A stretch of DNA of 41,705 bases, taken from the NCBI GenBank assembly GCA_003990765.1, contig RBNJ01000103.1, forward strand, positions 1 through 41,705, written 5' to 3'. Source of the stretch: Jimgerdemannia flammicorona. Its lineage: Eukaryota. Shown piece after piece: positions 1,548 through 29,762 of the stretch. How positions within the stretch are numbered: the stretch's first letter is position 1; each line of letters begins with the position of its first letter. Position numbers and translations under genes: made by a program. The notes beneath the pieces were generated by a model. The model made no database searches, was not told the origin of the DNA, and saw only the letters and a program-made list of their open reading frames with translations.

Positions 1548-3607
1548 TGTAAGAGGGTTACTTTTTAGGGTAACCATTATGTAGTCCTGGAAGGGTTTTC
1601 TAGAAGTTCTGGATATTCTAGAAGACTGTTTTCTTATGGTCAAGATCAATTTCATATGGAGTATGTCCTCTATGCTTATTGATTTCAAGATTGGGTTGAT
1701 GTCTCAACCAAAGTCCTTTTTTGGACTAGTTCTGGATGTTCAGGATTTTCCGTATTTCAGGAAGTTCGAGAAACTAAGACCAGCTTAGTTGGATTGGCAT
1801 ATTGCTGCAGACAATACCCAATTAGGAAATTTCGTGACAGGGTTAGGAGTAGGACCTAACAAGGAGCAGATTTACTTAAGAGTGGTTTGTGGGTTATGGG
1901 ATAGGTTTATTTGCTATTCATGATATTGCTATACTAGGAGTAGTTGTGTGAAGGAGTATTGTGGGGAAGTATTCAGGAATGTTCTTGTGTGTTTGAGTCT
2001 GAGATTCTGAGATCTGGGGGAGAGGATATTTATACTAGTGAGGGGCTATCTGAGCCATGCTAGATATGGATGTAGCACTAAGTGCCTTGCTGAGTCAGAA
2101 TGCAGTCACATAGTACAAGTATGATCTGACATATCAAGAGATTGTCTGACTGCTGAGTCGGTTCACAGTCTCATTGTATAAGGCTAATCTAACTCTACTA
2201 TGACTGCTAGACTATTTATGGGTTTAGGTGCTGTCTGGGTAGTCCTCGATGACATCACCATCGATTGCATCATCTCTGATGAAGTAGTCGTCTAGGAATA
2301 ATGGTTCATGTATTACTTCTCCTTGTTCGCTGAGGTTAATACATTGGAACTTCATCTCCATCCCACAAGATGGCATCATCAGTCTCATATGCTGGATAAG
2401 GTATTGGTGGGCGAAGGAGGGGTGCATCATTTTCATTTTCGTCGGATTCACTGTCTGTGTACCTTCTATAGGTTACGGCACTGTGAGTTGCGGGGTTATA
2501 GTATGCTGGTGGCTGTGGTTCATGTCACTCATACTCAGGTAGTGGAGTGGTTGATTCAATCTCAAGGGTTGTCTGGAGGTACAGGTTGTGTTCTCCAGTC
2601 TCTTCATTATAGTTGAAGTAGTCAGGGGTGAATTTGGGTTGGTATTCGTGCCAGTGGTCATTGTCCCAATAAGTCTCGTATGTAGTTATGAACTGTTGTA
2701 AGTTCATTGGCAAGATTGGCAGAGTGATCAGGGTTGGCAGAGATCCTTGGCTAGAGGTCATGTCAGCATCAGAGGGATCATTGTCTTCTGCTTCATCTTC
2801 ATTGAAGTGGATTATATCGTAGATGTCCTTCATGGCATATCCAACTTGGGGCATTTGCAGGATTTGATCATTGGAGTGTGGGAAGGTTCTGTCTGTGGTT
2901 TCGAAATACTCAAGGTACTTGAGGTTGAGTTCTTGTATCATGTCATCGATTTGGCCATAGGACAGGGTAGCAACCATTTCACTGATAGTAACTCGGAGGC
3001 AGGGAATAATGGTACTGTACTCATAGAAGAGTTCTTGATGTTTGCGGGCAATGAGCTTCTGGTGTTGAGACATCTCGGTAATATCTGTATCATGGTGATG
3101 TTCGACCATATCTTCCAGGAGGCGGCTGATCTGGTAGTAGCTTGAGATTTGTCTGATTTGGTGGGCCTCGCTAAGCATGTTCAGAGCATTCCATTGGGCT
3201 TCCATGAAGTAGAGGGGTGCTAGGCTATGGATATTCATGAGGGGCAGAGGGGGTATGGCTCGGTTGATAATGGCATTCCAAATGTCAGCACAGATACAGT
3301 TATAGATTTCAGTGGTCATGTTTGTGTGTTTGGAAGTTGTGGTTGTTGTTTGTTTTGGTTCTCTGATTTGATGCATCTCGGTGCTTGGTATATATACATT
3401 TGGTCCTGATTGGTAAGATTCCGTTTGTGTAAATCTTGTGTTCCATGACTTCATATTGACTCAGCTTTGTGCGCTGTGATTTCGGTTTGACTCAGCTTCA
3501 TGATCAAGCAGATGATTTTCAGATTTGTTTGGAGGTCGCATGTGATTTCAGTGGCTTGTTCAGAGGGTGACATGTAATTTCAGTGGCTTGGGGGTTGTGC
3601 ACTTACA
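1548..3607 (-). repeat. 3' LTR (2060 bp)
   Basis: Begins TGTAAGAGGG, ends ACTTACA (TGTAAG/CTTACA inverted termini). Colinear with 10122-12183 and abutted by the PPT. TATA-like TATAAATA on the minus strand near 2030. Confidence 0.97.
2525..3454 (-). CDS. LTR(U3)-encoded protein of unknown function, 309 aa; ancestral ORF probably ~410 aa extending to 2224
   Basis: Uninterrupted ATG-initiated 309-aa ORF in the element's sense orientation. The frame continues past the TGA at 2525-2527 (HEPQPPAYYNPATH...WDGDEVP). The 5' LTR copy, which is 2 bp longer here, joins it in frame to ...EPLFLDDYFIRDD...YPDSA*. Confidence 0.7.
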   Translation of the reverse strand: MKSWNTRFTQTESYQSGPNVYIPSTEMHQIREPKQTTTTTSKHTNMTTEIYNCICADIWNAIINRAIPPLPLMNIHSLAPLYFMEAQWNALNMLSEAHQIRQISSYYQISRLLEDMVEHHHDTDITEMSQHQKLIARKHQELFYEYSTIIPCLRVTISEMVATLSYGQIDDMIQELNLKYLEYFETTDRTFPHSNDQILQMPQVGYAMKDIYDIIHFNEDEAEDNDPSDADMTSSQGSLPTLITLPILPMNLQQFITTYETYWDNDHWHEYQPKFTPDYFNYNEETGEHNLYLQTTLEIESTTPLPEYE

Positions 3608-3620
3608 ACTCTCCCCTTCT
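3608..3620 (-). promoter_or_regulatory. Polypurine tract
   Basis: AGAAGGGGAGAGT on the minus strand, directly before the TGT of the 3' LTR. Confidence 0.9.
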
Positions 3621-4034
3621 TAGCTTTCGATGTCCTCGTTGGGGCCTTCTAATTTGTTCTAGTATTGTTACACCATTTGCGAGGTCAAAAGTCTGGTAAG
3701 GTCCATTTTTTCTCAGAAAGTGGCATGCTCGTAGTACAGTTGCCTAACGCATTGGATTCACATGTTAAAGGGTTGTGTGTTCAATACCATGTGCTGGAAG
3801 TGATTCTGACGTCATTCACTGCTGGAGAATTTCCTCTAAGGAATCTTCTTAAATGTCTATGCCTCATTTCCCACCAGTGGTACGGGGAGAATAGGCTTGC
3901 TTTCAGTTTTGCTATTTTTCCAGAGGGTCAGTATTCTTGTCTTGTTTTGCTGAGTTCTTGGTTTAGTTTGTGATAATTATAATGTTTGGGAGGATAATAT
4001 ATAGTGTATACTGATAGGTGCAGAGTATTCGGCT

Positions 4035-7000
4035 CTAGTTGTTTAAGGAATCATATTTCTGAACTAGGTCAGTAGCATTCTGAAGATTGGTCTTGGGTTC
4101 CCAGGTTGCATTATGGATCGGGTAACCTTTCCATTTGATAAGGTACTCAGGGTGGTTCTTATTGCCACATTTGTTGAGGATTTGTTCAACTTTGTACTCT
4201 TCTTGGTCATTAATAATGACAGGTGCAGGTGGTTTGGTGGTCCAGTTTGGAAATAGCTCATCATCATTGTCATTGTATTGCTTGAGACATTGAACATTAA
4301 AGACTGGGTGATCTTAATAGTGTCAGGTAGCGCCAGTTTGTAGGAGGTTGGAGAGACTTGTGCAATGACTTCAAATGGTCCAATGAACTTGCTGTTCAGC
4401 TTTGTAGATGGTCTGTGCTTCAGGTTGTCAACTCAGTATCCTCTGATGTCTAGTAGGACTTTTTCTCCAATATCAAAAGTTTCTTCTCTGCAGTGTTGGT
4501 TAATATACTGTGATTGTTGTTCTTGGGCTTGTGATAAATTCTCGATGGCAATCTGGCTTAAATTGCGCATTTGGAGTAAGAATTCTTCAACAGCTTCGAC
4601 TGTAAAGGGTTCTTCAGTGGTTTGGATAAGTGTCAAAGGGGTGTTTGAATTTTGTCCAGTATTGGTGAAGAATGGGGTCATTCCAAGAGAGGCTTGTTTG
4701 CTATTGTTGTAGGCAAACTCAACTGTGGTGAGGTGTTCATGCCAATCATCTTGCCTGTAGGAAACATAGTTCCTTAGCATTTGTTCTAGAGTTTGGTTCA
4801 TTCTTTCAGTTTGGCCATCAGTTTCTGGGTGAAAGGCTGTGGATAGTGCAAGTTTTGTTCCAAGGTGTGCATAGAGGGCTTTCCAAAAGTTGCTGGTGAA
4901 TTTCGGATCTCGCTCACTAACAATAATCTTGGGAAGACCATGATAGTGGAAAATGTTGTCAAATAAGAGTGTGGCTATGTCTGGTGCTGTTGCAGTAGTG
5001 GTAGTAGGTACAAAGTAGGCTTGTTTGCTGAGATAGTCCACAAAGACAACAATTGCATCTTTCCCATTCTTGGTTCGGGGTAGTTGTACAATGAAGTCTA
5101 TAGAGATTTGTTCCCAATTCACAGATGGTACTGGGATAGGGTGAAGTAAGCCGGGTTTTGCTAGTGTGGAGGACTTGTTTCGTTGGCAGGCATCACAGGA
5201 AGTAAAGTAGGTTTTGAGCTGATCTGCCATATGGGGCCAATGGAAGTTTTGAGAGATAACTTCATAGCATTTGTCAAATTCTAAATGTCCAGCTGTAGGG
5301 GCATCATGACATTTGAATAGGATAGTTCTTCAGAGATCTCGGTTGTTTGGGATACAATCTGTCGTTGTAGTAGATAGCATTGTCCTTGAGTTGGTATTGG
5401 TTGTACCGGGTATACTTGTCAGCATCATTATTGTTCAGGATTTCTCAGAGTGCTTGAGCTTCCTTATCATCAATACATGCTGCAATGATTTGTTCCATGA
5501 TAGTGTTGGTAACTAAGGTCAGAGTTTAGAGAAACTCTTCGATTGGTGGTCTAGAAATTGTATCAGCAACAATGTTTTCCTTGCCAGGGTGGTACTGAAT
5601 TTCATAGTCAAAGTTGGTGAGGACTTTCATCCATCTGGCTTGCTTTCGAGAAAGGGTAGCCTGTGTCTTGATGTTGACTAATGACTTGTGGTCAGTCAAT
5701 ACAGTGAAGTGTGCTCCTTCTAGATATGGTTGATATTTGATCAGAGTGTCTACGATGGCTAGCATTTCCTTTTCGTGAGTTGTGTAGTTGATTTTGGCAT
5801 CATTGAACTTGCAGGAGTGATAGGCCACAGGGTGTCATTCTTGCATGAGCACTGTTCCAAGAGCTAGATCAGAGGCATCAGTAGTGACTTCATATAGTAG
5901 GGCAGAATTTGCCACTTAAAGTACTGGAGTGGTTATCAGGGCATCCTTTAGTGCTTGAAAGGTGGTATCTTGCTCATGTCCCCAATTTACAAGATTGTTG
6001 AAGTCTTTTTCTTATTTCATGGTCCAGGGTTGTTCTTGTTTCTTGCTGTGCTTGGTCATTTGGGTGAGGGTGGTAGCGATTTTAGCAAAGTTGGCAATGA
6101 ATCGCCTGTAATAGTTTGCTAATCCCAGGAATGACTGGAGGTCTTTCAGCTTCTTGGGTCTGGGCCAATCCTTGATTGCAGAGATTTTGCTGGGGTCTAC
6201 TTTAATTCCATTTGGAGTGACAATGTGTCCAAGGAATTGAATTTCTTTTAGAAGGAATTCACACTTACTGAGTTTTGCAAAGAGTCGGTTTTCTCGGAGT
6301 TTCAGTAGTACTAGTTCAAGGTGTTCAAGATGTTCCTCCAAGGTTTTGCTGAAGACTAGGATGTCATCAATATAGACAACAACGAATTTGTCCAGGTATG
6401 GATGCAGGATAGTATTCATCAGTATCTGGAAGGTTGCTGGAGCATTAGTTAAGCCAAAGGGCATAACCAGAAACTCGAAGTGTCCATAGCGAGTTCGGAA
6501 GGCTGTCTTGTAGATGTCTTCTTCTTTCATAGTAATTTGCCAGTAACCATTTCATAGGTCAAAGGAGCTCATGAATTGCAGGTTGGTAAGTCTATCAAAT
6601 ATTTCATCGATCCTCGGTAGTAGGCAACAGTTCTTGATAGTCTGTTCATTGAGATCATGGTAGTCAATACACATTCGCAGGTCTCCTCCTTTTTTGACAA
6701 CAAAGAGGACTGGTGCGCCATAGAGTGATATGCTGGGTCTGATGAATCCTTGTTCTAGGAGTTCATCGATTTCTTTCTTGAGTGCATCAATTTCTCTTGG
6801 AGACATGTGGTAGATTGACTTGAAGGCCAGTTTGGTGTCTGGGATAGTTTTGATTGCATGGTCTACTGCTCATTTGGGAGATAGGCCTTTCGGGAGCTTC
6901 TTTGGGAATATGTCTTGAAATTTCTGGAGTAGTGGTCTGACATGGCTGTCAACTTTGGAAAAATCTTCTTCAGAGTTCTCGGGTTCTCCTTTGGATGGTC

Positions 7001-7570
7001 GGATGGAGATGGCGAAGAGAGGGCATTTCTTGGCCAATTTCTTGAGTTGTAGCTTGTTGATGTGGGTGATCTTTGGTCCAGGGTCACTAGAGTTGAGTGG
7101 GTCCTTTTCACCTTATAGTTTGAAGTTGTGGTGTCCTTTCTTGATGGTCAGAGAATGGTTTACCCAATCAATCATGGGGTTCTCTTATTTTAACTATGGG
7201 GTTCCAAGGATGATTTCATTGTCAGGAAGTGGTACGATTTGGAGGGTAACATGTACTCGGTAGTCACCAATTTGGCAGAGTAGATTGTGGACTTCTTTGC
7301 TAATAACATGTGAGGTTCCATCAGCTGTAGCAACTGCTTGGGTTTGCTATACAGGAGAGGTGAAGACCTTGAGTCTGTTGGCTGTTTCTTCATTGATGAA
7401 GTTGCCTGAGGCACCACTGTCTATCATGATCTTGACAGATGCTCTGTTGACAAAAGCCTTAAGGGTGAGCAGTTTGTCTGATCCAATGGTGGTGATTTCA
7501 GTTATAGGAGCCTTTCTTCTGTTGGTTCTTCTTTGAGCCAGTTCGTTGACACAAGAGAAGCAATCATCAA
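4035..7570 (-). pseudogene. pol: pol: protease, RT, RNase H, integrase with GPF motif and chromodomain
   Basis: Protease [23 protein letters not shown]. RNase H TDASDLALGTVL and NYTTHEKEML. Integrase H..H..CDAC, SIDFI, SERDPKF, HPETDGQTER, KFIGPF. Multiple stops and frameshifts. Confidence 0.95.
4065..4203 (-). other. Integrase C-terminal chromodomain
   Basis: Translates EEYKVEQILNKCGNKNHPEYLIKWKGYPIHNATWEPKTNLQNA (Y.VE.IL, YL.KWKGY and TWEP motifs). Not in the ORF track frame. Confidence 0.92.
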
Positions 7571-7685
7571 TCATTTGGAGAGTACATTCCAATACCATGA
7601 GGGCATCAGCCACTTGGTACATATCCATCTTCGATCATCTTGTAGAATTGTTCTTCTTTGCTCATGGTAGGTTGGGCTGGGGCTT

Positions 7686-8100
7686 TGTTTGATGAGCTAA
7701 ATCCTTTGGATCCTCGGATGGTGGGCAGTAGTTCAGGGACTTCCTTGACTGTCAGAGTTGACTCGATTTTTTCGAATAGGATCTGGGCAATGCAGAAACC
7801 AATAGGGATCTTGAAGGGTATCCAACTGTGGTTTCGGATGAGGACAATAATTTTGCCTGTATAATCTTCGTCAATGACTCCTCCTTCTACTGAGAGTCCT
7901 TTCAGTGCTAGGCTGCTGTGACAGCATATTCTTCCAACATGTCCTTCAGGGATTTGGATACTGATTCCTGTGTAGACTTGTTTGACTTCTCAGTTGAAAA
8001 CTATAGCTTCTTCAGCTGCATACAGGTCATATACAGCTGCTTTTTGACTTTCTTTGGTTGGGGCCTTAGCAGTTTGTCTTAACTTGACAAAGTCTAGTAT
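7686..8100 (-). pseudogene. dut: dUTPase domain between Gag zinc knuckle and protease
   Basis: Translates ILDFVKLRQTAKAPTKESQKAAVYDLYAAE...TGISIQIPEGHVGRICCHSSLALKGLSVEGGVIDEDYTGKI...IGFCIAQILF...RGSKGFSSS. All five trimeric dUTPase motifs are recognisable; one internal TGA. Confidence 0.92.
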
Positions 8101-8159
8101 TCTGGTGGTCAGGTTGTTGAGGTGGTGAAGAGTGGTAACAGTTGCTCATGTTGCTGTTC

Positions 8160-10082
8160 AGGGTTTTCGGTTAGGGCAGGCACTGGCCATATGTCCTGTC
8201 TTTTGGCAATAGAAGCATGCTCCACTTCTTCGAAGTTCATTCCTTTCACCTTCAGTAAGTTTCTTGAAGGTACTTGGCTGGGTGGGTTCTTGATTTCTGG
8301 GTGTCTAAGGGGTGGACATGGAGGGAGCTCAGGATGCTTCATGCTTGAGTTCTTCTTTCTTGGTCTAAGTTCTTTCCTTGTTATTGAATTGCCTTCAGGG
8401 CAGAATTGGTCCAGCTGTTAGGATTTGCTTGACCATGGTCTTCATTCTTGCCAGGCACCATTGTTGATGATCACAACTGGGTGGCCTTGCTCTCAGATTT
8501 TTCTAGTAAGCCATTCAGGCAGGGCATCAAATAAATGGTCTGCTCTTGTACCATTTTGTGCTTCATCATTGGCAATATATCCTAGGCCAACAGTGTTCAG
8601 GAGTGACTCGAGTTTTGTACAGAAGGTTTCGAATTCTTCTTTACCATATACATCAAATTTGAGGTTGTGGAGTTTTACTCGAGATTCGGCAATCATGGTT
8701 TCACTGTGATATTGAGCAATCATGAGTTGTTTGAGTCCAGGGGCTGCAGGATGGGCTCCATATCCTGGGACATTGTTTGCTGCATTCTGAGCAACTACTG
8801 CAGGTCGGGTATCTTATGTGAGGGGTTTTTCAGGAAGGGTTCGCTACCATTCTTCGGCAGGTCCTTGAAAGAATGTAACAACTTGGCGGACATAGGCTGT
8901 AGTTGTAGCAAAGAGTTGTTCCAGAGTGTGGTCTTAATTGTTTGTCAGAATGCGGTCAGCAACTCGCTCATTAGTCCATTGATTGGCTTCGAAGTTGGTA
9001 TCAACTATACTAATGAAGCTTTGGACTTCTTGTACAGTACCATTGAATGTAGGTAGGCTCAGATTTTTGGTAGGTCGGGTCTGTTCAGCTAAGGCAGTAA
9101 TGGTTGCTGCCATTATGGCTATCTGGGCTGTGAGGTCTAGAATCTGTTGGTTTGCCATGTTGTTTACTAGAGGTGGTTGGACTGCTGGTAGTGGTGTTAC
9201 CAGTACTACTTGAGGTACAGGTGCAGAATGTGATGGAGTTCTTTAGGTCTATGTAAGTTGCTAGAGTAGTAGTTGTGGGTCTGGAGTGAGGGCTTGATAG
9301 ATAGCTGTTTGTTGCTGTGTAGGTGTATTCTGTCCTGATGGACATGTATCTCCTTCAGTGGTGTATCTGGGATCAAATTCGGTGAGATACTCCTCCTCTT
9401 CTTCAGTTTGGTCCCCATGTAATTGGGTTTGCTCGGTATCAAAGTAGATGGAATCAGTTGTATATCTGATTTCAGATGGACTTAATTCAAAGTCAAGTTC
9501 AGGTTCGGTATTGGTTTCAGATTCAGATAGGGCTATAGTAGGGCCTGCTTCAGGTTTGGGATCAGGTAGTTGATGAAGGGTTTCTCTTACTTCTTCTTTA
9601 AGAATATGGCAGGCCTTGCTGTTCTGGAATCGGTAGTATAATGCAGTCTTGGTCCTGGTACAGTGAAAGTTGGTAGAGTTGAGCCACTTGGCTACAGAGG
9701 CTTGGGCTTCATGAGGAACTAAGGCTAGAAAGACTGCTGCTGGTTGTCCTAGGTTGCTTGGATTTGTAGAGCTGACAAAACTCTTGTTGAGAAGAGTAAA
9801 GAAGGCTTCAATAAGACCTTCTTCATCTTGACTTGCTGGGTGTAGTGCAAGGAGTTTGGTGAATAGCGTTTTGCCTATTTGCTGGTTTAACCTGAGTACT
9901 TCTTTCTTTGAATGAAGTTTATTCCACTTGTTGCAGGTGTGGAGGTCAAATTGTCCTTATACATCAGGTTCAATTCTCTCCAGATTGTCAGATAGTTCAG
10001 GATAAATTCCAGTTCAGAGGTTGGGCTTTATACCAACTTGTAGGAATTCTCAGAGGAGTTTTGTAGTGGGGTGAGGAAGCAT
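8160..10082 (-). pseudogene. gag: gag with long N-terminal extension and CCHC zinc knuckle
   Basis: ATG at 10082, just downstream of the PBS. Capsid-like LPTFNGT...FI and FQGPAEEW segments. CFYCQKTGHMASAC (CX2CX4HX4C) at ~8175-8220. Stops and frameshifts present. Confidence 0.85.
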
Positions 10083-10106
10083 CTTGAAGTGGAATTGGAT
10101 TGTAAA

Positions 10107-10118
10107 CCGCTGCTACCA
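10107..10118 (-). promoter_or_regulatory. Primer binding site, probably initiator tRNA-Met
   Basis: TGGTAGCAGCGG, 3 nt inside the 5' LTR end. TGGTAGC matches known iMet-type PBSs. Confidence 0.85.
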
Positions 10119-10121
10119 AGT

Positions 10122-12183
10122 TGTAAGAGGGTTACTTTTTAAAGTAACTGTTATGTAGTTCTGGAAGGGTTTTCTGAAAGTTCTGGATATTTTAGAAGAC
10201 TGTTTTCTTATGGTCAAGGTCAATTTCATATGGAGTATATCCTCTACGCTTATTGATTTCAAGATTGGATTGACATCTCAACCAAAGTCCTTTTTTGGAC
10301 TAGTTCTGGATGTTCAGAATTTTCCGTATTTCAGGAAGTTCGAGAAACTAAGACCAGCTTAGTTGGATTGGCGTATCACTGCAGACAATACCCAATTAGG
10401 AAATTTCGTGATGGGGTTAGGAGTAGGACCTAACAAGGAGCGGATTTACTTAAGAGTGGTTTGTGGGTTATGGGATAGGTTTATTTACTATTCATGATAT
10501 TGCTATACTAGGAGTAGTTGTGTGAAGGGGTATTGTGGGGAAGTATTCAGGAATGTTCTTATGTGTTTGAGTCTGAGATTCTGAGGTCTGGGGGAGAGGG
10601 TATTTATACTAGTGAGGGACTATCTGAGCTATGCTAGATATGGATGTAGCACTAAGTGTCTTGCTGAGTCAGAATGCAGTCACATAGTACAAGTATAATC
10701 TGACATGTCAAGAGATCGTCTGACCACTGAGTCAGTTCACAGTCTCGTCATACAAGGCTAATCTAACTATACTATAACTGCTAGACTATTTATGGGTTTA
10801 GGCACTGTCTGGGTAGTCCTCGATGATATTACCATCAATTGCATCATCTCTGATGAAGTAGTCATCTAGGAATAATGGTTCACGGATTACTTCTCCTTGT
10901 TCACTGAGGTAATAATATATTGGAACTTCATCTCCATCCCACAAGATGGCATCATCAGTCTCATATGCTGGATAAGGTATTGGTGGGCGAAGGAGGGGTG
11001 CATCATTTTTGCTTTTGTCGGATTCACTGTCTGCATATCTTCTATAGGTTACGGCACTGTGAGTTGCGGGGTTATAGTATGCTGGTGGCTGTGGTTCATG
11101 TCACTCATACTCAGGTAGTGGAGAGGTTGGTTCAATCTCGAGGGTTGTCTAGAGGTACAGGTTGTGTTCTCCAGTCTCTTCATTATAGTTGAAGTAGTCG
11201 GGGGTGAATGCGGATTGGTATTCGTGCCAGTGGTCATTGTCCCAATAAGTCTCGTATGTAGTTATGAACTGTTGTAAGTTCATTGGCAAGGTTGGTGGAG
11301 TGATCAGAGTTGGCAGAGATCCTTGGCTAGAGGTCATGTCGGTGTCAGAGAGATCATTGTCTTCTGCTTTGTCTTCATTGAAGTGAATTATATCATAGAT
11401 GTCCTTCATGGCATATCCAACTTGGGGCATTTGCAGGATTTGATCATTGGGGTGTGGGAAGGTTCTGTCTGTGGTTTCAATATACTCAAGGTACTTGTGG
11501 TTGAGTTCTTGTATCATGTCATCGATTTGGCCATAGGACAGGATAGTAACCATTTTGCTGGTAGTAACTCAGAGGCAGGGAATAATGGTACTGTACTCGT
11601 AGAAGAGTTCTCGATGTTTGCGGGCAATGAGCTTCTGGTGTTGAGACATCTCGGTAATGTCTGTATCGTGGTGGTGTTCGACCATATCTTCCAGGAGGCA
11701 GCTGATCTGGTAGTAGCTTGAGATTTGTTCGATTCGGTGGGCCTTGCTAAGTATGTTCAGAGCATTCCATCAGGCTTCCACGAAGTAGAGGGGTGCTAGG
11801 CTATGGATATTCATGAGGGGCAGAGGGAGTGTGGCTCGGTTGACAATGGCATTCAAAATGTCAGTGCGGATATGGTTGTAGATTTCAGTGGTCATGTTTG
11901 TGTATTTGGAAGTTGTGGTTGTTGTTTGTTTTGGTTCTCTGATTCGATGCATCTCGGTGCTTGGTATATATACATTTGGTCCTGATTGGTAAGGTTCCGT
12001 TTGTATAAATCTTGTATTCTGTGACTTCATATTGACTCAGCTTTGTACACTGTGACTTCAGTTTGACTCAGCTTCATGATCAAGCAGGTGATTTACAGAT
12101 TTGTTCGAAGGTCGCATGTGATTTCAGTGGCTTGTTCAGAGGGTGACGTGTAATTTCGGTAGCTTGGGGGTTGTGTGCTTACA
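10122..12183 (-). repeat. 5' LTR (2062 bp)
   Basis: TGTAAGAGGG...GCTTACA. Colinear with 1548-3607; differences are nearly all transitions. Confidence 0.97.
10798..12030 (-). pseudogene. Second copy of the U3 ORF (1233 nt = 411 codons, no net frameshift, internal stops)
   Basis: ATG at 12030 to TAA at 10798 is divisible by 3. Stops at 11770 (TGA; CAA in the other LTR), 11149 (TAG; CAG in the other LTR) and the shared TGA near 11101. Confidence 0.7.
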
Positions 12184-13203
12184 TTAATAGCCAAGAACAT
12201 ATTTCTGAGCAATGAGATATTGTAATCATAAAAGACACCCAAACTGCCAAGACTGCAGACACTAGAAGATTCACCTCAGCTATGATATTGTAATCCACAC
12301 ATTGAAGAGAGAAGATAACAGAACTCAGATCTGAAAAGTTAAGTCAAGAAACCAGAAAGAAGGATCCTCAAGATCTATAATTTGAAATAAGATATCTTAG
12401 CCCTCATCAGACATACAATCTACCATAAATGGGTAGAAAATGCTAACAACTTTTTGGAAGCATTAGACCCCACAGGAAAGAGAGAAATTAACTATCTCTG
12501 AGACCCTTCTACTGAAGTCAGATGGTTATACCTCAATCTCAAAGCCTGGAGGCTTTCTGCCAGAGAAGCTTCAGCCCAAGGATAGCCAGAACTCAGCAAA
12601 GATGTCACCCAGTATATCCTACTACATCTCAAGGCCAAACCTCCAACCAAAGCTCACCAAGAAGATATAGGGTATGACCTCTACAGTCTGGAGGATGAAT
12701 CCATCAGATCTGGAAGAATATTGATGTTCAGAATAGAACTAGCTATGCAGTCACCCAAAGGAACTTATATTCAGTTAACCTCAAGATCTGGACTTGCCAG
12801 ATAAGAAGTAACTATAAAAGAAAGAACCATAGACCCAGGATAGACAGACAAAATTAAGATCATCTTGCATAATAGTGGCACAAAATGATATCAAATCCTT
12901 AGAGGACAGAAGATTACTCAAGCAATCTTCATGAAAATCAAGACCCCTCAATTATAAGAAGTCTCCAAACTGACCAAAGGAACAAGACAAACTGAAGGAT
13001 TTGGAAGCTCAGATAAGAAAGAAGTATATCTCCTCTAGGCCAACTACCTCAAGAAGGATGCCCTTCAGCAAGTATATTGCCAATCAGTCAAATTGCAGAA
13101 GAACCTTATCCTGGAGCCTGGAGAGCAAACCATTTTCGAAATCTTTGCACCACCCAACCCCAGGAATCTCTTCTTTGAACCCAATGAAGACATCCTGAAC
13201 CTG
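12184..13203 (+). mobile_element. Internal fragment of a second Ty3/gypsy family containing a dUTPase (12601-13015)
   Basis: Translates ...KAKPPTKAHQEDIGYDLYSLE...LTSRSGLAR*...TIDPG*TD...GQRITQAIF...RQTEGFGSS. 12368-13203 aligns with 23476-24312. Confidence 0.88.
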
Positions 13204-15085: not shown

Positions 15086-17861
15086 TCACTGGCGAGGACG
15101 TTTTTGCTTCGGCTTCGTTGGCGTCGTCATACAATCGGGCATTGCCCTTTCTTCTTTTCTCCTTTTGACAATCATTTCTTGAAAGGACGTTGCAATCGTC
15201 GGGACTCTTGTGCTCAAGGCTTTCGCCGTTTCCTGTACGGCTCTCTATAAAGTGTAAAGGGTGTATAAAGAATAACATGAAAATAAAGAATAACATGAAA
15301 AGAACGAAATAGCACTACCTTTAAAGTTACATACAATTACATTACCTTAATATTCAATATTGCTGCAAGGATTGGAAGAAGTGCTGTAATACTTTCCTCG
15401 CAATTGGGAACCTCCATTATCTCTCCTCGTTGAATTCTGCAAACAAACCCACCGGGACAGTCCATGAAAATGGGCATCATGATAAGGCCTATAAATAGTA
15501 GGTAGCAGGTGAGCATCCCCACCTCATTTCTGTTTAATTTTGTCATAAAATACTCACCCGAATGTATAATTCCGACCGTTTGCATTCTTGAACAAAGCTC
15601 TGGTTTCCAATCCGCCTTTCTCATCAACTTGGTGAGCATGTCTTTCAACGCTTTCGGCACCTTGAGTCCAGCCTCCATGAATTTCGTGCCGAAATTGTCC
15701 GTCCACTCCTTGGCTGCCTCGCCTACACCAAATTCGTCGCGGTCTCCGTTCCCAACGCTCCTTAACACCCAATCGCCTCGATGTCCTACATTGCGACGAT
15801 CATTGGATTTGCGATGGCCATTCTTTCGGAGAGCTGTTGACATGGTAATGTTTTCCCCACTTGATGGATGAGATATGAAATCCAATTAGATATTTATCAG
15901 CAAACAACAAAATTGCTAATATATAAAATATATGGCTTTTACCGAACGACAGAAATTCCTGAGAGATTGCCAAACCCTTGGTCAACTATGACATGCCATA
16001 TGTGACAATTGTACCAAGACTCCAAGTTGTTATGTTTGAGATGACCACCTTCAATTTCCCGAATCCTGTAAGATCAAACTTCAATAACTGCCATTAAGAA
16101 CTCATTGCAAGATTAAGATAATTGAAGCCTTACACTGTATGCAATGCATATCGAATGTAATCAAGATCGTGGTATGCATCACGCGTATATCCTCTCCCAA
16201 ATCGTTCGTCTTGGGAATTCAGAGTCTCCCTAACATCTGCGACCTTCATTTTCGTGCTGAATCTGCTCAGATATTCTGCGACGTCTTCGGAGAGTTGCGG
16301 AACGCTCGGTTGTGGCGCTGTAGTTATCTCTTCGAAATCCTTGTCATTGAAATGATTACGCACATTGTCGTCCTCTGTGTCCAAGATAAATGAATGTGTC
16401 CCACTGGAAATAATATAGCCAAAACTATTACCAACAAATTCTTGTAAAATTCCAAGCAAAGGAATGTCTATAGCTACTTACTGTTCGTAATTTAGACCCT
16501 TTCCGATCTTATATAGTTCCTCCTCAACGATCGTGCCGCTTTCTAGTCTCCACATTTGTGCCTTCGGCATACGGTTGAATGCCATCTTTATCTCCTTTCT
16601 GTGATAACTTGTCAACATCGGAGGGGCGGTCTGCAAGGGACAAATAACGGCACTCTTCAATTTCAACTGCATTATGATTAAAGTCCCAAACAATGAAAGC
16701 TCACCTTATCTGCCACAGGGTTTATATAATTTTTATCCTCCCTCAATTCTTTTCCTTCGTCCTCGCTTTCTTCTGGGGTGGAGTCCTTAATGAACCTTCG
16801 AAGGGCCAGCTCTTCACTTTCGGTGTCGTTGTTGCTGTCGCTGCTGTCATTGTCTTCATTGTCACCGACGTCGTCGTCAGCGCCGCCGTCGTCGTTGTCG
16901 TCGCCGCTGTCGTTGTCGTCAACGTCTCTGACGTCGTTGTCAGCGCCGTTGTCGTTGCCGCTACTGTTGTCGTCATCGTTACCGTCATTGGCGCCAGCGT
17001 CATCATTGTCGTCGTTGCCACCTTTGACTGAGTGCTGAAAAAAGAAAAACAAAATATTATTGAATTGATCGCCACCTCCAAAACAAACAATCCAAACATC
17101 TTGTAAATAAATGGAAACAAATATAACGGATTTCAGGGTAGTCTTTTCAATATCTTCCCAAAATGTGGTAACACTTTGGAATGCTTGGCGGTGGTTCTTT
17201 TGAGTGGATGTTGGAAATTAAGAAGGTAAGTAAAACATATTTGAAACGGAATAAGGCCGAAAATGTCTGGGGTTAACCAGCAAATAACGTAAAATGGATC
17301 CGCAGAGCATAAGGTCGGCAAAAAAAATTTGAAGAAAGTAGTTGGTACACAATTAAGATGCAGTTCGCAGATGACCCTCCCAGTCACATATATATATACG
17401 TATAGGGCCATCAGACGTATTCACAAAAATGATGACAAATAACAACCTACCTTGAAATTTTTTAATAGAAGTTGGCATGAATTCCTCACTTCGTCAAATT
17501 CACTTCTCGAGAACCGTTTCAGCTCCAGCAAAAATTTTGTAGCTTCTTTGCGGAAACAGAAGGTGAAATCCTTCTGATGCTGGCGAAACTCATAGAACCC
17601 AATGTGGCTGTACTCGCTGGCAGGTGTTTCTCGGAAATATTTCGAAGATGTTTGTGGCCTCACTGGTTATGGAAAAATAGACACACCGCAGTTCCAGCAA
17701 TGAAGGCGTTGCGAACACACACAGAAAAACGGTTGATAAAAGAAGGCAGGTTTACTTGTCGTTGCTGGGGTCTGGATTTTTCCTTCGGCTTTCACTTGAT
17801 TCCTAATGTATGGCTTTTGGGCAGGAGCAGCAGGTCGGTGGGGGGCTTTCTTTTTGGGCAT
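15086..17861 (-). CDS. Intron-rich (~10 exons) gene for a putative PD-(D/E)XK restriction-endonuclease-fold protein; apparently intact
   Basis: Manual GT-AG splicing gives MPKKKAPHR..., KYFRETPASEYSHIGFYEF, TFWEDIE, an acidic D/N tract, MWRLESGTIVEEELY, EHGTHSFILD, ESWYNCHIW, RGE...RKN...GHRGDWVLR...EFGVGEAAK...K.PKALKDML, GIIHSG, MDCPGGFVCRI, ending ...KQKRPRQ*. The nuclease fold is inferred from motif order. Confidence 0.8.
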
Positions 17862-22260: not shown

Positions 22261-23117
22261 CGAACTCCCTCTTCTGTAGGTATTGTCACGGTTGTCGAGG
22301 GCATCTGAGTTGCGATTAGCAACATGTACTTAAGTGCCATTGAGTTTTATGCTGTAGTTATGCGCCACATAGATCACAACCCTTGTGATGACCTTGATGC
22401 CGATAATGCCACCTTTGCCATGCGTGATGTTGGTCTTTTCACTGACAGGTGCTCATACTCTGGCTCGATCATGCGAGAGGTGACATGTGGCAGCTGTAAA
22501 GAACACGATGGCCGTGTGGCTTACGGCCAGGTAGGGCTCAGAGAAAAGAAGTTTCTGGTTATTGACGTGTGAAAAGGAAACCAGAGATGGTGGCGGTGGG
22601 TTTCATGGAAGTTGTCATGGATTGTCAATAAATTCCAATTGTTCAGCAAATTACATTAATGCTATTCTACTTTGGACGCAGTTACGATTTTCAGAATCAT
22701 TGCGTCTGCATGCTCTCAGTTCAACACCTTATGCTCATGAGCACTTGTTGGAATATTGACTCTACCTTGTTGAACTTATATACCTTTTTTACATTGCCAT
22801 CAGCCAGTACATGCCTTGCTAAGAGCACGAAATTTGCAAAGATGCAGACAATCTCAAAGTTCTCAGGAACCAATATCTGATAGAGGAGGGTTTGAAGTCA
22901 TCAAGTATCAAGAGTTGATTAAGGAGTGTCAAATTATCATCATTATTATATTTTTTTCATCATACTCATCATCTGCACTCTATCTGAGTCCTGAGTGTTC
23001 ACTTTTTTCATCTTATTTTCATCACAGTTGATTAAGTTAGAGATCAAATCACTTAATTTATTATTAATGATATTATAATATATTAGTTCAATAAAGGCAA
23101 ATTTCAAGAGGAAGCAA

Positions 23118-23470
23118 TGTAGATTGGCTTGAGCTCTTAGTTACTTTATCAAAAGTAACAAAATGTTCAATAGTTTATATTAGATGAAGTATTAGAATTA
23201 TTTTAAATAGATAAAGTCTTCTTCTTAGTACTTGGTGACAAATTATCAGGCTTGGTTTTGATAAGAGAACTGAAGTTAAATCTGATAAAAAAAGCTTAAA
23301 ATCTCTTTAACAATAGCTCTTAAGTAGATATTTCTCCTAAGTATTACAATCAGTTCTTTTAGATCAAGTGACATTTAGTAGATATATCTCTAAAAGTATA
23401 TTATAGACAGACTTGTCTTTTGCTTTTAATTTAGATTATAGACTGAGATTTATTTACTTATATCTTTAAA
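23118..23470 (+). mobile_element. LTR-like fragment related to the LTR starting at 28670 (opposite strand)
   Basis: TGTAGATTGGCTTGAGCTCTTAGTTACTTTATCAAAAGTAACAAAATGTTC matches the reverse complement of ~28619-28670. Right boundary uncertain. Confidence 0.55.
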
Positions 23471-23475
23471 ATATT

Positions 23476-26400
23476 TCAAGATCTATAATTTAAGAGAAGA
23501 CATCCTAACTCTCATCAGACATACAACTCACCAAGAATGGGTAGAAGATGTCACCAATTTTATAGAAGCCCTAGACCTTACAGGAAAAAGAGGAATTAAT
23601 TATCTCTAAGATCTTTCTACTGAAGCCAGATAGCTGTACCTCAACCTCAGAGCTTGAAGACTTCCTACCAGTGGAGCTTTAGCCCAAGAATAGCCTGAAC
23701 TCAGCAAGAACGTTGCTCAGTATATTCTGCTACATCCAAAGGCCAAACTTCTAACCAAAGCTCACCAAGATGATATATAGTAAGACCTCTACAGTCTGGA
23801 GAATGAACCCATCAAGCCTGGAAGAACATTAGTGTTCAGAACTAGACTAGCCATATAGCTACCCAAAGAAACTTATATCTAACTAACCTCAAGGTCTAGA
23901 CTTGTCAGACAAAGAGTAACTATAGAAGGAGAAACTATAGATCCAGAATACACAAGTGAAATCAAGATTATCTTATTTAATAGTAGTATAGAATAGTACT
24001 GAATTCTTAGAAAATAAAAGATTATACAAGCAGTCTTTATAAAAGTCATGAGCTTTCAATTATAAGAAGTCTCCAAACTGACTGAAGGAACAAGATAAGC
24101 TAAAGAATTTGAAAGCTCAGATAAGAAGGAAGTATATCTTTTTCAGGTTAATTATCTCAAGAAGAATATTCCTTAGCAAGTATATTGTCAATCAGTCAAA
24201 CTGTACAAGAATCTTATCCTGGAGCCCAAAGAGCAAATTATTCTTGAAATCTTTGCACCATCTGACCCCAGAAATCTCTTCTTTAAATTCAATAAAGATA
24301 TCTCAAATCTGGATATTGGAGGTCATACATTTCCTGATAAGATGAATCCAGTACACTTCTGAGCAACTAACCAGAGCTAGAAAAGTATTATCTTGCCAAA
24401 AGAAACCATCATAGGATATCAGTGCCCTTCCTCAACTGAACCCATAGAGAAGTCTATGAGCTAAACTTATTGAGAAATAGCAAAAGGTCTCAGAAGAAAA
24501 GAAAGGCCCCTCTGTAACCCAGGAGACAGTAAAGCCTTCCATCAATATTGGAGAAGAATTGATACCTCAGTAATAGTAACAACTAGTAGAACTCCTCAAT
24601 AAATATCAAGATATCTTCACTACTAATTATAGTAATCTGCTATATAGCTCATCATACTACTATATTATAAATACAGAAAATGCAACACCCATTTGATAGA
24701 ATCTCTATAAAATACCCCACTACCTAAAGATATTCAAAAAGGAATATATTTAAGAACTCTTAGACAATAGAGTCATCTGACCCTCAACCAGCTCTTAGGC
24801 CAGCCCTACACTTATTATACTAAAGAAAGGAGGATAGAGACTCTGTGTAGACTATAGGAAACTCAATTTAGTCATCAAGAAGAATACCTATTCTTTGCCC
24901 TGAATTGATGACCTCTTGGACCAGTTACAAGATACCAGATACTTCAGCAGTATGGATCTTTTCACAGGATTCTATAAGATCTCCATGAATCTCAAAGATA
25001 TTTAAAAGACAGTCTTCTTAGCTCTAGAAAAACTGTTTGAATACCTCTGAATGCCCTTTAGACTTTGCAATATACCTCTCACCTTCCAGAGAATAATGAA
25101 CTCAATCTATGGCCCACTGATTTACTACTTCTAATTGTATATATAGATGATTCAAACATATATTTAGCTAATTTCGAGAAACACTTACATCACCTAAAAG
25201 AATTCTTTAAGCTCATCTATAAGAATCACCTAGACTCAATACCAAGAAATACTACTTTGGAAAACAGAAACTTAAATTTCTTGGATTCATAATTTCAAAA
25301 GAAGAAACTCATACAGACTCAAAGAAAATAAAGAAGATCAACAATTGGCTAGTACCCAAGACCCCAAAGGAAATACTATCATTCCTAATACTAGTATCCT
25401 ACTATAGAAGATTTATCAAAGACTTTGTCTAAATTGCTGCTCTAATCCAAATCCTTCTCAAGAAGTCTCTTACAAATAGACAGAATTATAAGAGAAAGCC
25501 TTCAAAGAACTCAAGTACTGTATGACTATAGCACCAATCCTTATTTCGCCCAATTTACAAAAGCCATTTATCTTGTATATAGATGCTTCTAAAGATGGTC
25601 TTAGAGTAGTTCTAGCCCAGAAAGGACCTGATCAACAATACTATGCGATAGCTTATACAAGTCAAGCAACCAATTAGCAGCAAACCAACTATAGTAGCAC
25701 CAAACTGAAATATCTTACAGTCATATATATAGTTACTCTGTTAAAGCATTATTTTATCAGAAAAAGATTCACTCTAATAACTGACCATGCAGTCTGCAAA
25801 TGGCTATTCAACTGTAAGAACCCCATCAGAATCCTAGCCCATGAATTCATATCCTTCAGAATTACACAATCACCATTATTTACAAAGTAGAGAAAGCTCA
25901 CAACAATGTTGATGTCTTTTCTGCCAACTCTAATGAATCAGAAGAAGAGTGTACTGAAAAGGAAACCTCAGACCATCAGAGTACAAGAAGATCTCATCTA
26001 GAAAGAATACCAGAAAACCTATCAAGGATAGGTGAATATAGAAGAAAAGCTGTAAATAATATACCAACATTGGCCCAATCTCAGAATATAAGTCTGGAAT
26101 ATACTCAAGAAATGTGATATCTGCCAGAAGTACCAAAGAAGGAAGAACCATTAAGCACCACTATAACCAATCATATGTACCATCAGACAGCATCTTTCAG
26201 AGATAGAGAGTAGATGTAATTGGACCTTTACTCATTATACCAAGAAGAAATAAGTATATTCTTATATTTGTGAAATATCTAACCAAGTGGCCTAAAGCTT
26301 TTCCAATAGAAATCACAGATGACTTGACTATTATAGACCTCTTCTATAGACTCACACTCAGATATAGACCCCCAGAAGAACTTATCTCTAATTGAGGCAC

Positions 26401-28049
26401 AGAATTCATCAATAATATAATCATAAGTTATACCTAAATTTACAAAATTCATCTCAAATAGACCCCATTATACTGCTCTCAGACCAATGGTATAATAGAA
26501 TAAATGAATCAGACCATTAAAAAAGATCAATTCTATCAACTAGGATCTCTGCTTATTTGAGATCCTATGGGAAATTCAGAATATCCCTACTATCTCTATC
26601 AAACAAAAGCCCTTCAAAATGATATTTGCTAAGAAAACCAGAACTACTAATGATGAGAACCTCAGAGATCTCTTCAAAAAGACAGAATAGTTATATAATT
26701 AAGTATGAGTTCAGATTATCAAGACCCAAGAAAGACAAAAGAAATATTATAATTAGAAGTAGAAGAATCAGAAGATCAAGATTGGAGATCAAGTACTAGT
26801 TTGGAGAAGTATAATTGAAACCAACTTTGCTACCAAACTGGAGTCCAAATGGGAAGGACCTTATCTTGTACACAATATTAGAACAACTAGTATCTATTTA
26901 AGAAATATAGATGGATGAAGTTTGAGGATACCAGTATACATCAACTACCTTAAGATATATCTCTCTCTATATTATAAACTAGACAATTGACCAGCATCTC
27001 CAGACTCTTGTTCTGAGCTCATTTCAATTACTTTCAGTTCCCCTCTCACAATTTCACTAAGCCAATAAAAACTCCCTCCAACAAATCCAGACCCATCAGG
27101 AGAATCTCACCTTAGTCAGACATATACTGTAAGTCTACCAGCTATAGGCCTACTATATGTATAATTGGAGAGCAATTGTAGAACCTTCTAACTTCAGATA
27201 TTAGAAACTCCACTGGTCTGATCTGGAAAAACACCACTACTATAGATAGATTATATATAATCTATAAAAAAAACACCCCAGCACTGATACAGGCACAGTT
27301 CTTTCTGAATGATATATAACAAATAAATCCTACCATCTACTTGAGTATTATCAACCATGTTGAAATCCTATTCTCAGAGAAAGAAGAAGAACCTATTAAA
27401 TAGAGTAACTCTGATCCAAATGAAGATAATAGTTCAGATATTGATACCAAAGATGCTTATATATATTGAGATGATAACTAAAGAATAGTCTGAGAACAGA
27501 CTATCCTTTAGTGGGGACTGATGTGACAAGCAGCAGAATTGTACTGCTGAAATCATAAATTAGCCACATACTATATTTAGTACACTAAGCAACTAAGACT
27601 ACTTTACTTTGCCACCCTATATAATTAGCCAGAGATACTAGAAACAGTATATCTATATTGGTCCAGTATACTATGTCAGTACACTATTCTGTTCATTATA
27701 TTGTACTATTCAGGAACACTTACTATAGATAGAAATCTATAATTAGCTATATAGTAACCAGTAGTAACCACAACTATATAAAATATCCCAGAGATAAGAG
27801 TGAATAAACCTCAGTCTGAAAATCAAAAGCAAAAGTCAATTATCTGATATACTTAGGAAGAGAAACCTGTCAACAAGCTACTGCCAAGAAGTTGTGAGCT
27901 ATTTTCCACTCCAGTCCACTTTCTGATACAAAGAAGAGTCTGTTATGTTTAGGTTCACTTGCCAGATAAGCCTGAAGAGAGCTCAAGTTATTTAAGAAGT
28001 CAATACTATCTGTTGTACAGAGGAAACCCACAATAGGAATCTTGTCACA
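23476..28049 (+). mobile_element. 5'-truncated, heavily mutated Ty3/gypsy element: dUTPase-RT-RH-IN(GPY)-PPT-3'LTR
   Basis: dUTPase ~23710-24123 (SRSRLVR, GETIDPEYTSEI). RT RLCVDYRKLN, LP*IDDLLD, VYIDD. RNase H LYIDASKDGL, LITDH. Integrase VDVIGPL, YLTKWPKAFP, QTNG, KWEGPY. PPT AGTGGGGACTGA at ~27510-27521. No chromodomain seen. Confidence 0.93.
27522..28049 (+). repeat. 3' LTR (528 bp) of the dUTPase-RT element
   Basis: TGTGACAAG...CTTGTCACA perfect 9-bp inverted termini, preceded by a PPT. TATATAAAA at ~27775. Confidence 0.85.
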
Positions 28050-29400
28050 AAGTCAGTCTTCTGATACAACTTCACAGTGGAGCCAGTCCATCTGATTTAA
28101 CCCTGCATAAATGAAGTCAGTCTCGACATAACTTTGCCAAGAATCTGCATCATCCAAGTTATTTCCCAGAAACCCACCAATTCAGAAAGAATCCACATCA
28201 TCTGAGTTATCTGCTATTTTTGAGTTATCTGCCATATTCAAGAAGCCTGCCAATTCAGGAAGAATCCATGACATCCGGGTTATCCGTGTCATCCAAGTTA
28301 TCTGAGTTATCAAGTTATCTGATATTCCCAGAAGAGTCTGCCGATTCAGGAGAATCTACGCCAAACCAAGTTATCTGAGTTATCTGCCAAATTGAGTTCC
28401 CTGCCAAATGCCAAGATCATCACACAGAAATTGCATAAGGAGCTAAACAAGATCGTCACGCAGAAATCACATACTTTTGGAGATCATCATGCTATACAAG
28501 GATCGTCAACTACATACATGCAAATCATTGCTCACACCCAAGTACCCATCTCAATAAGAAAATCGACCATTGTATCCAGATTGACTATTATACCAGTAAA
28601 CACCAACAAGGAATCTTAGAACATTTTGTTGCTTTTTGACAAAGTAACTGGGGGCTCAAGCCAAACTACATCAACCCCCAACCTTGTAATTTGTCTCTAT
28701 TGAGCTGGGCACATTACAGTATTAATACTATAAAAAATGCAGGCATTTCAAGCACTATCTCTATAGGTGCTGTGGGTGAGTCTTTCTCCAATATTATAAT
28801 AGGTAAGAAACTCTTCTCTGAGATAGTTCTGATCATTCCATCATTTATACCAGAGGAGGGTAGTGATAAACTCATAGGTGTCAGAATTTTCTATCATTTA
28901 TGGCTGGTCTGAAACTTAGTGGTTGATGGTATAGACTCCTTCATTCTTGATGATTTCAATGATACAGTTGATCTGAGAGGTATTGTATATTATTGTAAGA
29001 GTAGTAGAGATTATAGAGTAAGTATAGTTATTTTAGGGGTAATTATACTATGGTTGATGACTGAACTAAACAGGTTTTCATTATTTGCTAACTAAGTCTT
29101 GATCTTCAGTGAATTACTAGAGGTCATGCTGATGTTTGTAAGTATTGAGTAATTCATCAGTATTTGGCGGAAGGTATTCTTTGTATTTCCAGATAGAGTC
29201 CCAATTAGGGTATCCTTTCTATTTGATCAGATAGTATCTAGTTAGTTTTAGTGATCATCTATATCTTCTTCTTGATATTGTAGGATTTCTTCTACTTTAA
29301 ATTTAATATAGTCTGTGAACTTTACTGGGTCTAGGAGTGATACTGTTTGTCCTTCAAAGGGGTTGGATGTATACTGTCATAGTAGAGATATATAGAACAT
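28050..29400 (-). mobile_element. 3' end of another chromovirus (chromodomain, PPT, partial LTR 28050-28670 with internal GAGTTATCTG repeats)
   Basis: NPFEGQTVSLLDPV...FKVEEILQY and YLIK*KGYPNWDSIW at ~29190-29370. PPT TGGGGGTTGA (28671-28680), then TGTAG at 28670. Confidence 0.8.
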
Positions 29401-29546
29401 ATCTTTCCCCACCGGAAAAGAAAATGAAAAAAAAATGATATCAGTAAGAAGACATCCGTGTACATGTTCCGGAGATAAATGGCATCGATCTCTAAACCCC
29501 TCTCAAAAGGGAACCTCCTGCGGATTTTAGCATTACGCAAACCCAC

Positions 29547-29762
29547 CTTAAAACAATCCGGACACATAAGCCTACTCGTTAACTGTCCATGGAACAGGTC
29601 GACAATGATTGAGTCGAACCTGGCTTTATGGTACTTCCAGCTGATCCTAACGACCTCGGCGTCTGGCCAGCCGTCGAAGATGGACCATTCGATGTAGGGC
29701 ATCTTAATAATGCGATCTAGGTCTTCGTGAAGACCGTCCAGCAAGAAACCCCGTAGCTCCTG
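29547..29762 (-). pseudogene. Isolated 216-nt exon of a USP4/11/15 (Ubp12)-like deubiquitinase catalytic domain
   Basis: ttcag|QELRGFLLDGLHEDLDRIIKMPYIE...DSIIVDLFHGQLTSRLMCPDCFK|gtgggt. Neither the Cys box nor the His box is present in the window. Confidence 0.85.

Follow-up and report, generated by a model that had tools for sequence, protein, structure and literature searches.

A candidate accessory gene within the long terminal repeats of a Ty3/gypsy chromovirus from Jimgerdemannia flammicorona

Results

Both LTRs of the chromovirus contain the same ORF

We analyzed a stretch of 41,705 nucleotides from Jimgerdemannia flammicorona (assembly GCA_003990765.1, contig RBNJ01000103.1, positions 1 to 41,705 of the forward strand), referred to below as the window, which harbors a Ty3/gypsy chromovirus of 10.6 kb (1548-12183) with long terminal repeats (LTRs) of 2.06 kb. 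The element lies on the minus strand, as do all of its features described here unless a strand is named, and this report concerns an open reading frame (ORF) located inside its LTRs. The 3' LTR (1548-3607, 2060 bp) and the 5' LTR (10122-12183, 2062 bp) are 93.5% identical over 2063 aligned columns, and both have TG...CA termini, starting with TGTAAG and ending with CTTACA on the minus strand. An earlier note, made from the sequence alone, had described one sense-strand ORF in both LTRs upstream of a TATA-like box, open for 309 codons in the 3' LTR and spanning 411 codons in the 5' LTR, and both lengths were recovered. The two copies share the same frame in the sense direction of the element, namely on the minus strand. 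In its largest extent, the 3' copy occupies 2224-3454, with 309 open codons followed by a TGA at 2525-2527. Past this stop, its frame breaks at codon 372 because of a 2-bp deletion at 2336/2337, so that the last 34 residues are in another frame. The 5' copy occupies 10798-12030 and comprises 411 codons including the final stop. The ORF begins 153 nt inside the LTR (288 nt if counted from Met46) and stops 675 nt before the LTR end. No further copies of the LTR or of the ORF were found within the window.

The lesions of the two copies differ. The 5' copy has internal stops at codons 87 (TGA), 154 (TGA), 294 (TAG), and 310 (TGA), while the 3' copy reads CAA, CGA, and CAG at the first three of these positions and shares the TGA at codon 310; at codon 4, the 3' copy has TGG and the 5' copy CAG. 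The earlier note had called the lesions largely complementary and had derived the CAA/TGA pair from an ancestral CGA. Codon by codon, the lesions do complement each other and fit CpG decay, and at codon 87 a related protein fragment from outside the window (P0002, described below) reads Arg. The 2-bp deletion is likewise confined to the 3' copy, as the note had it: the gap is filled by AA or AG in other contigs of the family, namely in 6 contigs of sequencing run X1 and 3 of run X3.

The stops in both copies fit CpG decay

Substitutions between the two LTRs are predominantly transitions (124 of 132), and the observed/expected ratio of CpG is 0.31 in the element (1548-12183) compared with 0.80 in the rest of the window. 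Among the CpG columns of the LTR pair, 18 are intact in both copies, 33 have decayed in one copy, and 18 have decayed in both copies on opposite strands. These values point to methylation-driven CpG decay of repeats in the source fungus, and all stops in the two ORF copies fit such decay. Given 18 columns with opposite-strand double decay, a similar number of double decays in the same direction, which leave no visible difference, is expected by symmetry; codons 4 and 87 provide direct examples of double CpG hits. Because such double hits are frequent, the TGA that both copies have at codon 310 can be explained without readthrough and without an ancestor that was already truncated. Of the two origins that the earlier note had offered for this stop, parallel CpG mutation is thus sufficient and readthrough is unneeded. 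The window copy of the gene is dead, with CpG-decay stops in both LTRs, the 2-bp deletion in one of them, and a broken gag-pol region.

The ORF has the properties of a constrained gene

To place the ORF length against chance, the longest sense frame was scored in 2000 dinucleotide-preserving shuffles. The longest sense ORF of the LTR has 311 codons, while the shuffles gave a mean of 86 and a maximum of 196, none (0 of 2000) reaching 309. Over the span of the ORF, each copy has five stops in the ORF frame (the terminal stop included for the 5' copy) compared with 14-37 in the other two sense frames. Moreover, the base composition by codon position of the ORF resembles that of the reverse transcriptase (RT) and integrase frames, while the LTR tail outside the ORF is flat.

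A HMMER scan of 1.84 billion representative proteins returned three matches at E<=0.001, two of which we regard as real. P0001 is 247 aa long, shares 64-65% identity, and extends from residue 160 to the same C terminus as the LTR ORF; it is open across codon 310, where it has Gln, and its sole gaps are two in-frame gaps of 2 residues each. P0002 is 128 aa long, is 86% identical to residues 46-173, begins at Met46, and carries the Arg at codon 87 mentioned previously. A word-indexed protein search recovered P0001 alone (1 of 121 candidates). The third HMMER match, P0003 (E=3.9e-4), covers a 38-residue stretch of a repeat protein and was dropped as probably spurious. Scans of metagenome contigs, prokaryote genome contigs, and viral contigs revealed no related DNA loci. 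When the open part of the window ORF was drifted neutrally to 64% identity over 247 codons, in 1000 runs at each of three transition shares, only 1.4%, 1.6%, and 0.6% of the runs remained free of stops.

Public contigs aligned to the LTR yielded 18 well-supported family differences within the ORF. Twelve of them are common to both window LTRs and thus set the lineage of this element apart from other family members; these comprise nine synonymous and three nonsynonymous differences, against an expected synonymous share of 0.30 (binomial P=0.0016); four of the nine synonymous ones fall beyond codon 310. The six differences private to the 3' copy comprise two synonymous and four nonsynonymous ones, and the two dead copies differ from each other by 16 synonymous and 33 nonsynonymous single changes, which is near the neutral share of 0.33. 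This is the pattern expected if the ORF was under purifying selection during the active period of the family and the inserted copies then decayed neutrally. Together, the synonymous excess, the open relative at 64% identity, and the drift simulation uphold the proposal of a gene in the earlier note, and we consider the LTR ORF probably to be a real protein-coding gene under constraint.

The LTR belongs to a multicopy family in public sequence data

The family was found in 15 listed runs from nine studies, mostly soil metagenomes, with a best word share of 0.23; none of these listed runs is recorded as RNA. In each of the four runs with aligned contigs, which stem from three studies, the LTR and the ORF within it are covered by contigs of 80-100% likeness (3928, 497, 499, and 423 aligned contigs). 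Since the ORF segment is present in contigs of all four runs, it is part of a multicopy LTR family and not a private insertion. Contig ends accumulate at 1548, the edge of the 3' LTR, in runs X3 and X5. Joints within contigs have noncanonical ends, most with intervening letters, and resemble deletion variants.

Two observations on depth stand apart. In the small run X11, the kind of which was guessed to be RNA and the uncovered bins of which carry no information, the summed contig depth is 2773-5308 over 1691-1981 compared with 0-20 over 1982-3630; this step lies ~50 nt downstream of the TATAAA described below, is unexplained, derives from per-contig depth, and was not used as evidence for a transcription start or for expression. 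In DNA runs, the LTR has a higher depth than the internal region, and this difference was not used to estimate copy number.

Signals around the ORF suggest two tandem promoters

The only TATAAA of the LTR lies at 2029-2034 (LTR position 1574; 10608 in the 5' LTR) and is the proposed promoter of the genomic RNA. In both LTRs, 190 nt separate it from the ORF stop upstream, in agreement with the placement of the ORF upstream of the TATA box in the earlier note. The only AATAAA follows 123 nt after it, at 1906-1911, and is the proposed poly(A) signal of both the genomic RNA and the ORF transcript; both signals are conserved in the 5' LTR. Because the end of the ORF precedes the sole TATAAA by 190 nt, the ORF probably lies in U3.

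Upstream of the coding region, two tandem 31-nt modules form a direct repeat at 3436-3497. Each includes GCTGAGTCA, with the exact 9-mers at 3457-3465 and 3488-3496, and they are putative activating sites. Two inverted copies of the module, on the plus strand, are present at 2088-2193 between the ORF stop and the TATAAA (9-mers at 2089-2097 and 2152-2160); inverted and sense modules are 73-74% complementary. The exact GCTGAGTCA occurs six times in the window, always within the two LTRs. When a one-mismatch copy is included, each LTR has four sites, two in sense orientation before the ORF and two inverted before the TATAAA. TATA-like places number just two on the sense strand of the LTR, and each follows a module pair at a distance of 61-67 nt. 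We take TGA(G/C)TCA to be an AP-1/Gcn4-type site, and CCAAT and TATA to be putative promoter elements.

Downstream of the first module pair, the order of elements is CCAAT (3413-3409), TATATATA (3396-3389), a G-poor and A/C-rich stretch, and the ATG of Met46 (3319) in the context CAAACATGA. The CCAAT and TATATATA pair, putatively part of a promoter, is 77 nt upstream of this ATG. The CCAAT, TATATATA, the A/C-rich leader, and the Met46 context are all conserved in the 5' LTR. We consider Met46 more likely to be the true start than Met1 (3454): the N terminus of P0002 coincides with Met46, the ATG of "Met1" sits inside the second tandem module, and the family differences, when split post hoc, are none synonymous and two nonsynonymous in codons 1-45 and nine synonymous and one nonsynonymous in codons 46-410. 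The probable coding sequence would therefore run from Met46 to the TAA (2224-3319) and comprise 365 codons. An additional upstream ORF of 16 codons starts at 3491 (3441-3491), and its TGA overlaps the "Met1" ATG (ATGA). Both upstream ATGs lie inside GCTGAGTCA modules and may be parts of cis-elements rather than start codons.

For the spliced or subgenomic transcript starting near 3500 that the earlier note had envisaged, no donor-like GT[AG][AT]GT is present from the TATAAA of the 5' LTR through the leader into early gag (10610-9700). The arrangement of the signals favors a promoter inside the LTR over such a transcript, and the gene may have a promoter of its own there, at somewhat less than even chances in our estimate. 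A separate observation is that the LTR itself starts with TGTAAGT (3601-3607), in which LTR positions 2-7 form the splice donor-like hexamer GTAAGT (GTAAGC in the 5' copy); this match may be due to chance.

The predicted protein is acidic and lacks a recognizable family

The full-extent protein has 410 residues with a net charge of -39 and a pI of 4.5. Residues 46-186 were predicted by AlphaFold2, with low confidence, to be helical, and the remainder is acidic and rich in Tyr, Phe, and Trp as well as in Pro; the Phe/Tyr/Trp content reaches 17-22% in the C-terminal blocks 251-300 and 371-410. Blocks conserved with P0001 are located around residues 252-263, 275-296, 352-356, and 384-396. No membrane helix was detected by hydropathy (top 19-residue window of 1.22), which supports the view in the earlier note that the protein is not env-like.

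The note had also recognized no domain, and family searches gave no match. Pfam returned no families for the ORF, P0001, or P0002 at E<=0.01 or at E<=10, the best match in a profile search of PDB sequences had E=0.4, and the best entries in the ESM Atlas reached a feature score of 0.82 and a TM of 0.30. The quality of the AlphaFold2 models of residues 1-309 (pLDDT of 36.4) and of P0001 (pLDDT of 31.8) did not suffice for a fold search. By these comparisons, no known family or fold could be assigned to the LTR protein. As a separate matter, an origin of the ORF from gag was considered and rejected: against P0030, the polyprotein nearest to this element, BLASTP gave E=0.51 and phmmer gave no hit, and hhalign assigned a probability of 0.25% to a match with the gag alignment.

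Architecture of the element and its surroundings

The internal region identifies the element as a chromovirus, as the earlier note had done: Pfam recognized RT, RNase H, and integrase domains as well as a chromodomain at the C terminus, which follow each other in this order on the minus strand. A primer binding site, TGGTAGCAGCGG, lies at 10107-10118, 3 nt past the 5' LTR, and we take it to be complementary to the 3' end of a tRNA. A polypurine tract, AGAAGGGGAGAG, is found at 3609-3620, immediately upstream of the 3' LTR. Between them, the decayed gag-pol region (4035-9956), delimited from Pfam matches and the ORF list, has many frame breaks. It comprises a gag N-terminal extension from the ORF list (9261-9956), gag (8493-9242, pieces of which match polyprotein P0030), dUTPase between gag and protease (7606-7989, Pfam 9.9e-23), protease recognized by a DSGA motif only (about 7347-7634), RT (6012-6869, RVT_1 2.4e-28), RNase H (5526-5834, RT_RNaseH 1.2e-23), integrase (4433-5329, Integrase_H2C2 3.9e-16, and rve at 6.8e-07, which is below the Pfam cut-off), and the chromodomain (4035-4313, Chromo 2.3e-16). 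The nearest relative of the integrase is P0030, with 61% identity (1756 matches among 3701 candidates), a polyprotein of 1964 aa that likewise contains a dUTPase. The stretch at 9261-9956, between the 5' LTR and recognizable gag, has 231 open codons without any Met and shows a weak, collinear match to the N terminus of P0030 (BLASTP E=0.16). Probably, Gag has an N-terminal extension here that is specific to the lineage and the start codon of which has decayed.

No target-site duplication was seen at the element ends, the flanking pentamers ATTAA (12184-12188) and GTTTT (1543-1547) being unequal. Decay, or recombination between copies, would account for this, and it has no bearing on the chromovirus assignment. 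A second RT relic on the opposite, plus strand (1070-1534, RVT_1 4.7e-29) ends just short of the 3' LTR, so the chromovirus was probably inserted in or beside an older retroelement. Elsewhere in the window, an exon of a ubiquitin hydrolase (UCH) lies at 29331-29861; its nearest relative is from Endogone sp., with 69% identity over 43% of the query, and the next relatives are from Phycomyces and Hesseltinella (92 matches, 305 candidates). By this single exon, the host is probably a soil fungus of the Mucoromycota. Two open stretches on the minus strand at 15337-15885 and 34179-34568, without a Pfam family, share 39% identity over 107 residues (E=7e-19) and may represent a repeated gene or a mobile-element protein. 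The block at 23001-28000 is AT-rich, with 31-34% G+C compared with about 42% elsewhere, and includes a 300-nt repeat (23476-23775) that is 81% identical to 12368-12667, just beyond the 5' LTR; this block likely consists of remnants of older repeats.

Discussion

Comparison with known LTR-borne and accessory genes

Accessory genes inside the LTR are textbook knowledge for a few complex retroviruses. For LTR retrotransposons, to our knowledge, such genes are treated as absent, and the LTRs are assumed to be purely regulatory. The closest parallel is sag, the superantigen ORF in the LTR U3 of mouse mammary tumor virus (MMTV); its product, Sag, is a membrane glycoprotein of type II, for which spliced RNAs or RNAs of an internal promoter serve as messengers. 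Both sag and the LTR ORF are sense ORFs of a few hundred codons that lie wholly in U3, in our case probably, as judged by sequence signals, and both are consequently present in the two LTRs. However, the LTR protein has neither a membrane helix nor a sequence match, and its host element is a fungal Ty3/gypsy element without env, with a possible promoter inside the LTR. The LTR ORF is therefore a positional analog of sag and not a member of its family. The nef gene of human and simian immunodeficiency viruses (HIV and SIV) and the bel/bet genes of foamy viruses are likewise genes with accessory or regulatory roles that are located at the 3' end of a retroelement and have part of their sequence in common with U3. 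Those genes begin in the internal region and merely overlap U3, whereas the LTR ORF lies wholly inside the LTR, and no homology was found. Foamy virus Tas is an acidic transactivator expressed from an internal promoter.

In plant LTR retrotransposons, additional ORFs are located in the interval from the 5' LTR to gag or in that from pol to the 3' LTR. As in the present element, these are extra genes besides gag and pol with no function assigned, according to the accessible part of a review (PMC7264820), and the wordings "within," "in," and "inside the LTR" do not occur in that review. Among fungal chromodomain-containing Ty3/gypsy elements, the portions available of Novikova et al. 2010 (PMC2864245) describe members with a dUTPase, located at the N terminus of Pol in one Postia family; the present element also has a dUTPase, which here precedes the protease. 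For some fungal elements, the legend of figure 3 in that paper mentions an "add. ORF" with no known function, and an overlap with the LTR ORF is possible, while its text, as far as accessible, describes no LTR-borne ORF. A full-text search of the literature outside subscription journals did not turn up any description of an ORF within a fungal retrotransposon LTR. Overall, the gene looks real and its LTR location unusual, in an arrangement that is known from some retroviruses.

Weighing the explanations

On balance, we favor the explanation that the chromovirus LTR contains a real accessory gene, located in U3 and provided with a promoter of its own; this reading is drawn from the sequence signals and comparisons described previously. 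Several points weigh against it. The proteins from outside the window are two fragments only, which stem from short contigs and are known as protein sequence alone, and since gene callers report open frames only, P0001 and P0002 represent a biased selection. For the synonymous excess, the basis is 18 tool-selected differences out of 638 over 2.9 kb, and the division of these at codon 46 was made post hoc. The promoter motifs are short consensus matches with a meaning assigned from recall, the inverted modules around the ORF could be the ends of an inserted cassette, and the two low-confidence models leave no particular function favored.

It is possible, although unlikely, that the gene is real and located in U3 without a promoter of its own, and that its messenger is a subgenomic RNA of the element 3' end, either spliced or started internally, in the manner of MMTV sag or HIV nef. 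The U3 position is the same as in those retroviruses, a CAG about 20 nt before the first ATG is a possible acceptor, and the noncoding interval of about 415 nt between the end of pol and the LTR could house an internal promoter. However, the search of 10610-9700 revealed no donor-like GT[AG][AT]GT, and both the layout of CCAAT, TATA, leader, and Met46 and the start of P0002 fit transcription that begins within the LTR. We regard as similarly doubtful the idea that the ORF is a passenger, namely a cassette bounded by inverted repeats, from the host or another mobile element, that entered an ancestral LTR and renders no service to the retrotransposon. On either side of the ORF are 31-nt arms (2089-2119 and 3435-3465 / 3467-3496) with a complementarity of 73-74%, and the protein is unrelated to gag or pol. 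Nevertheless, no relative from a host or a transposon was found in the 1.84 billion representatives, in Pfam, or in PDB sequences, and the arms show no duplication along their outer edges. In addition, the synonymous excess and the open relative at 64% identity argue for selection during the activity of the family, and contigs cover the ORF region in four of four runs.

The remaining two explanations are far less probable. If the TATA-like site upstream of Met46 were the sole promoter, the element RNA would start upstream of the ORF, which would then be the first cistron of a very long R-U5 leader; this is highly improbable, as R-U5 would reach about 1.8 kb and the sole TATAAA and sole AATAAA, 123 nt apart downstream of the ORF, form the usual U3/R/U5 layout. 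Equally improbable is that there is no gene and that the frame was kept open by composition, the outside proteins being chance-open copies from gene callers: while the T-poor sense strand lengthens random frames, the outside fragments number two, and both folds failed, no shuffle reached even 200 codons, the ORF frame has 5 stops compared with 14-37 in the other sense frames, the probability of no stop at 64% identity is 0.006-0.016, and the synonymous excess has P=0.0016.

A possible self-contained transcription unit and its implications

If an accessory gene with its own promoter is indeed present in U3, its position would mean that it is copied into both LTRs at each transposition and kept in solo LTRs. 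Its RNA polymerase II promoter would comprise the two GCTGAGTCA modules, the CCAAT, TATATATA, the A/C-rich leader, and the start at Met46, and the messenger, of about 1.4-1.5 kb with 365 codons, would end at the single AATAAA of the LTR. A second, tandem promoter at the TATAAA would drive the genomic RNA. As the same modules precede both promoters, one host factor could drive both, and every LTR would constitute a self-contained transcription unit. The product is predicted to be soluble and very acidic, to have a high content of aromatic residues, and to be helical toward the N terminus. Such an acidic, aromatic-rich composition resembles that of activation domains and of other adaptor-type disordered regions and would fit an acidic activator that works like foamy virus Tas or VP16, and no binding domain was recognized. 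By analogy, we tentatively suggest an activator-like or adaptor-type regulator that might serve the element in transcription, escape from silencing, or control of copy number. More speculative still, and rather improbable in our estimate, is that each LTR, solo LTRs included, expresses the acidic regulator, with a dose that rises with the number of LTRs and feedback via the GCTGAGTCA modules; within this self-contained unit, the regulator would act as a transactivator or as a brake on copy number, in a control circuit of the retrotransposon that would persist after gag-pol is lost.

The LTR gene is nearly absent from protein databases, with two fragments among 1.84 billion representatives, and the occurrence of the family in soil metagenome runs of several studies offers material for testing. 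If a constrained gene is indeed present in the LTR of a fungal chromovirus, LTR retrotransposons would be able to reach a retrovirus-like complexity by another route. Solo LTRs could then be protein-coding units, beyond their role as promoters, and repeat masking may conceal a class of orphan genes.

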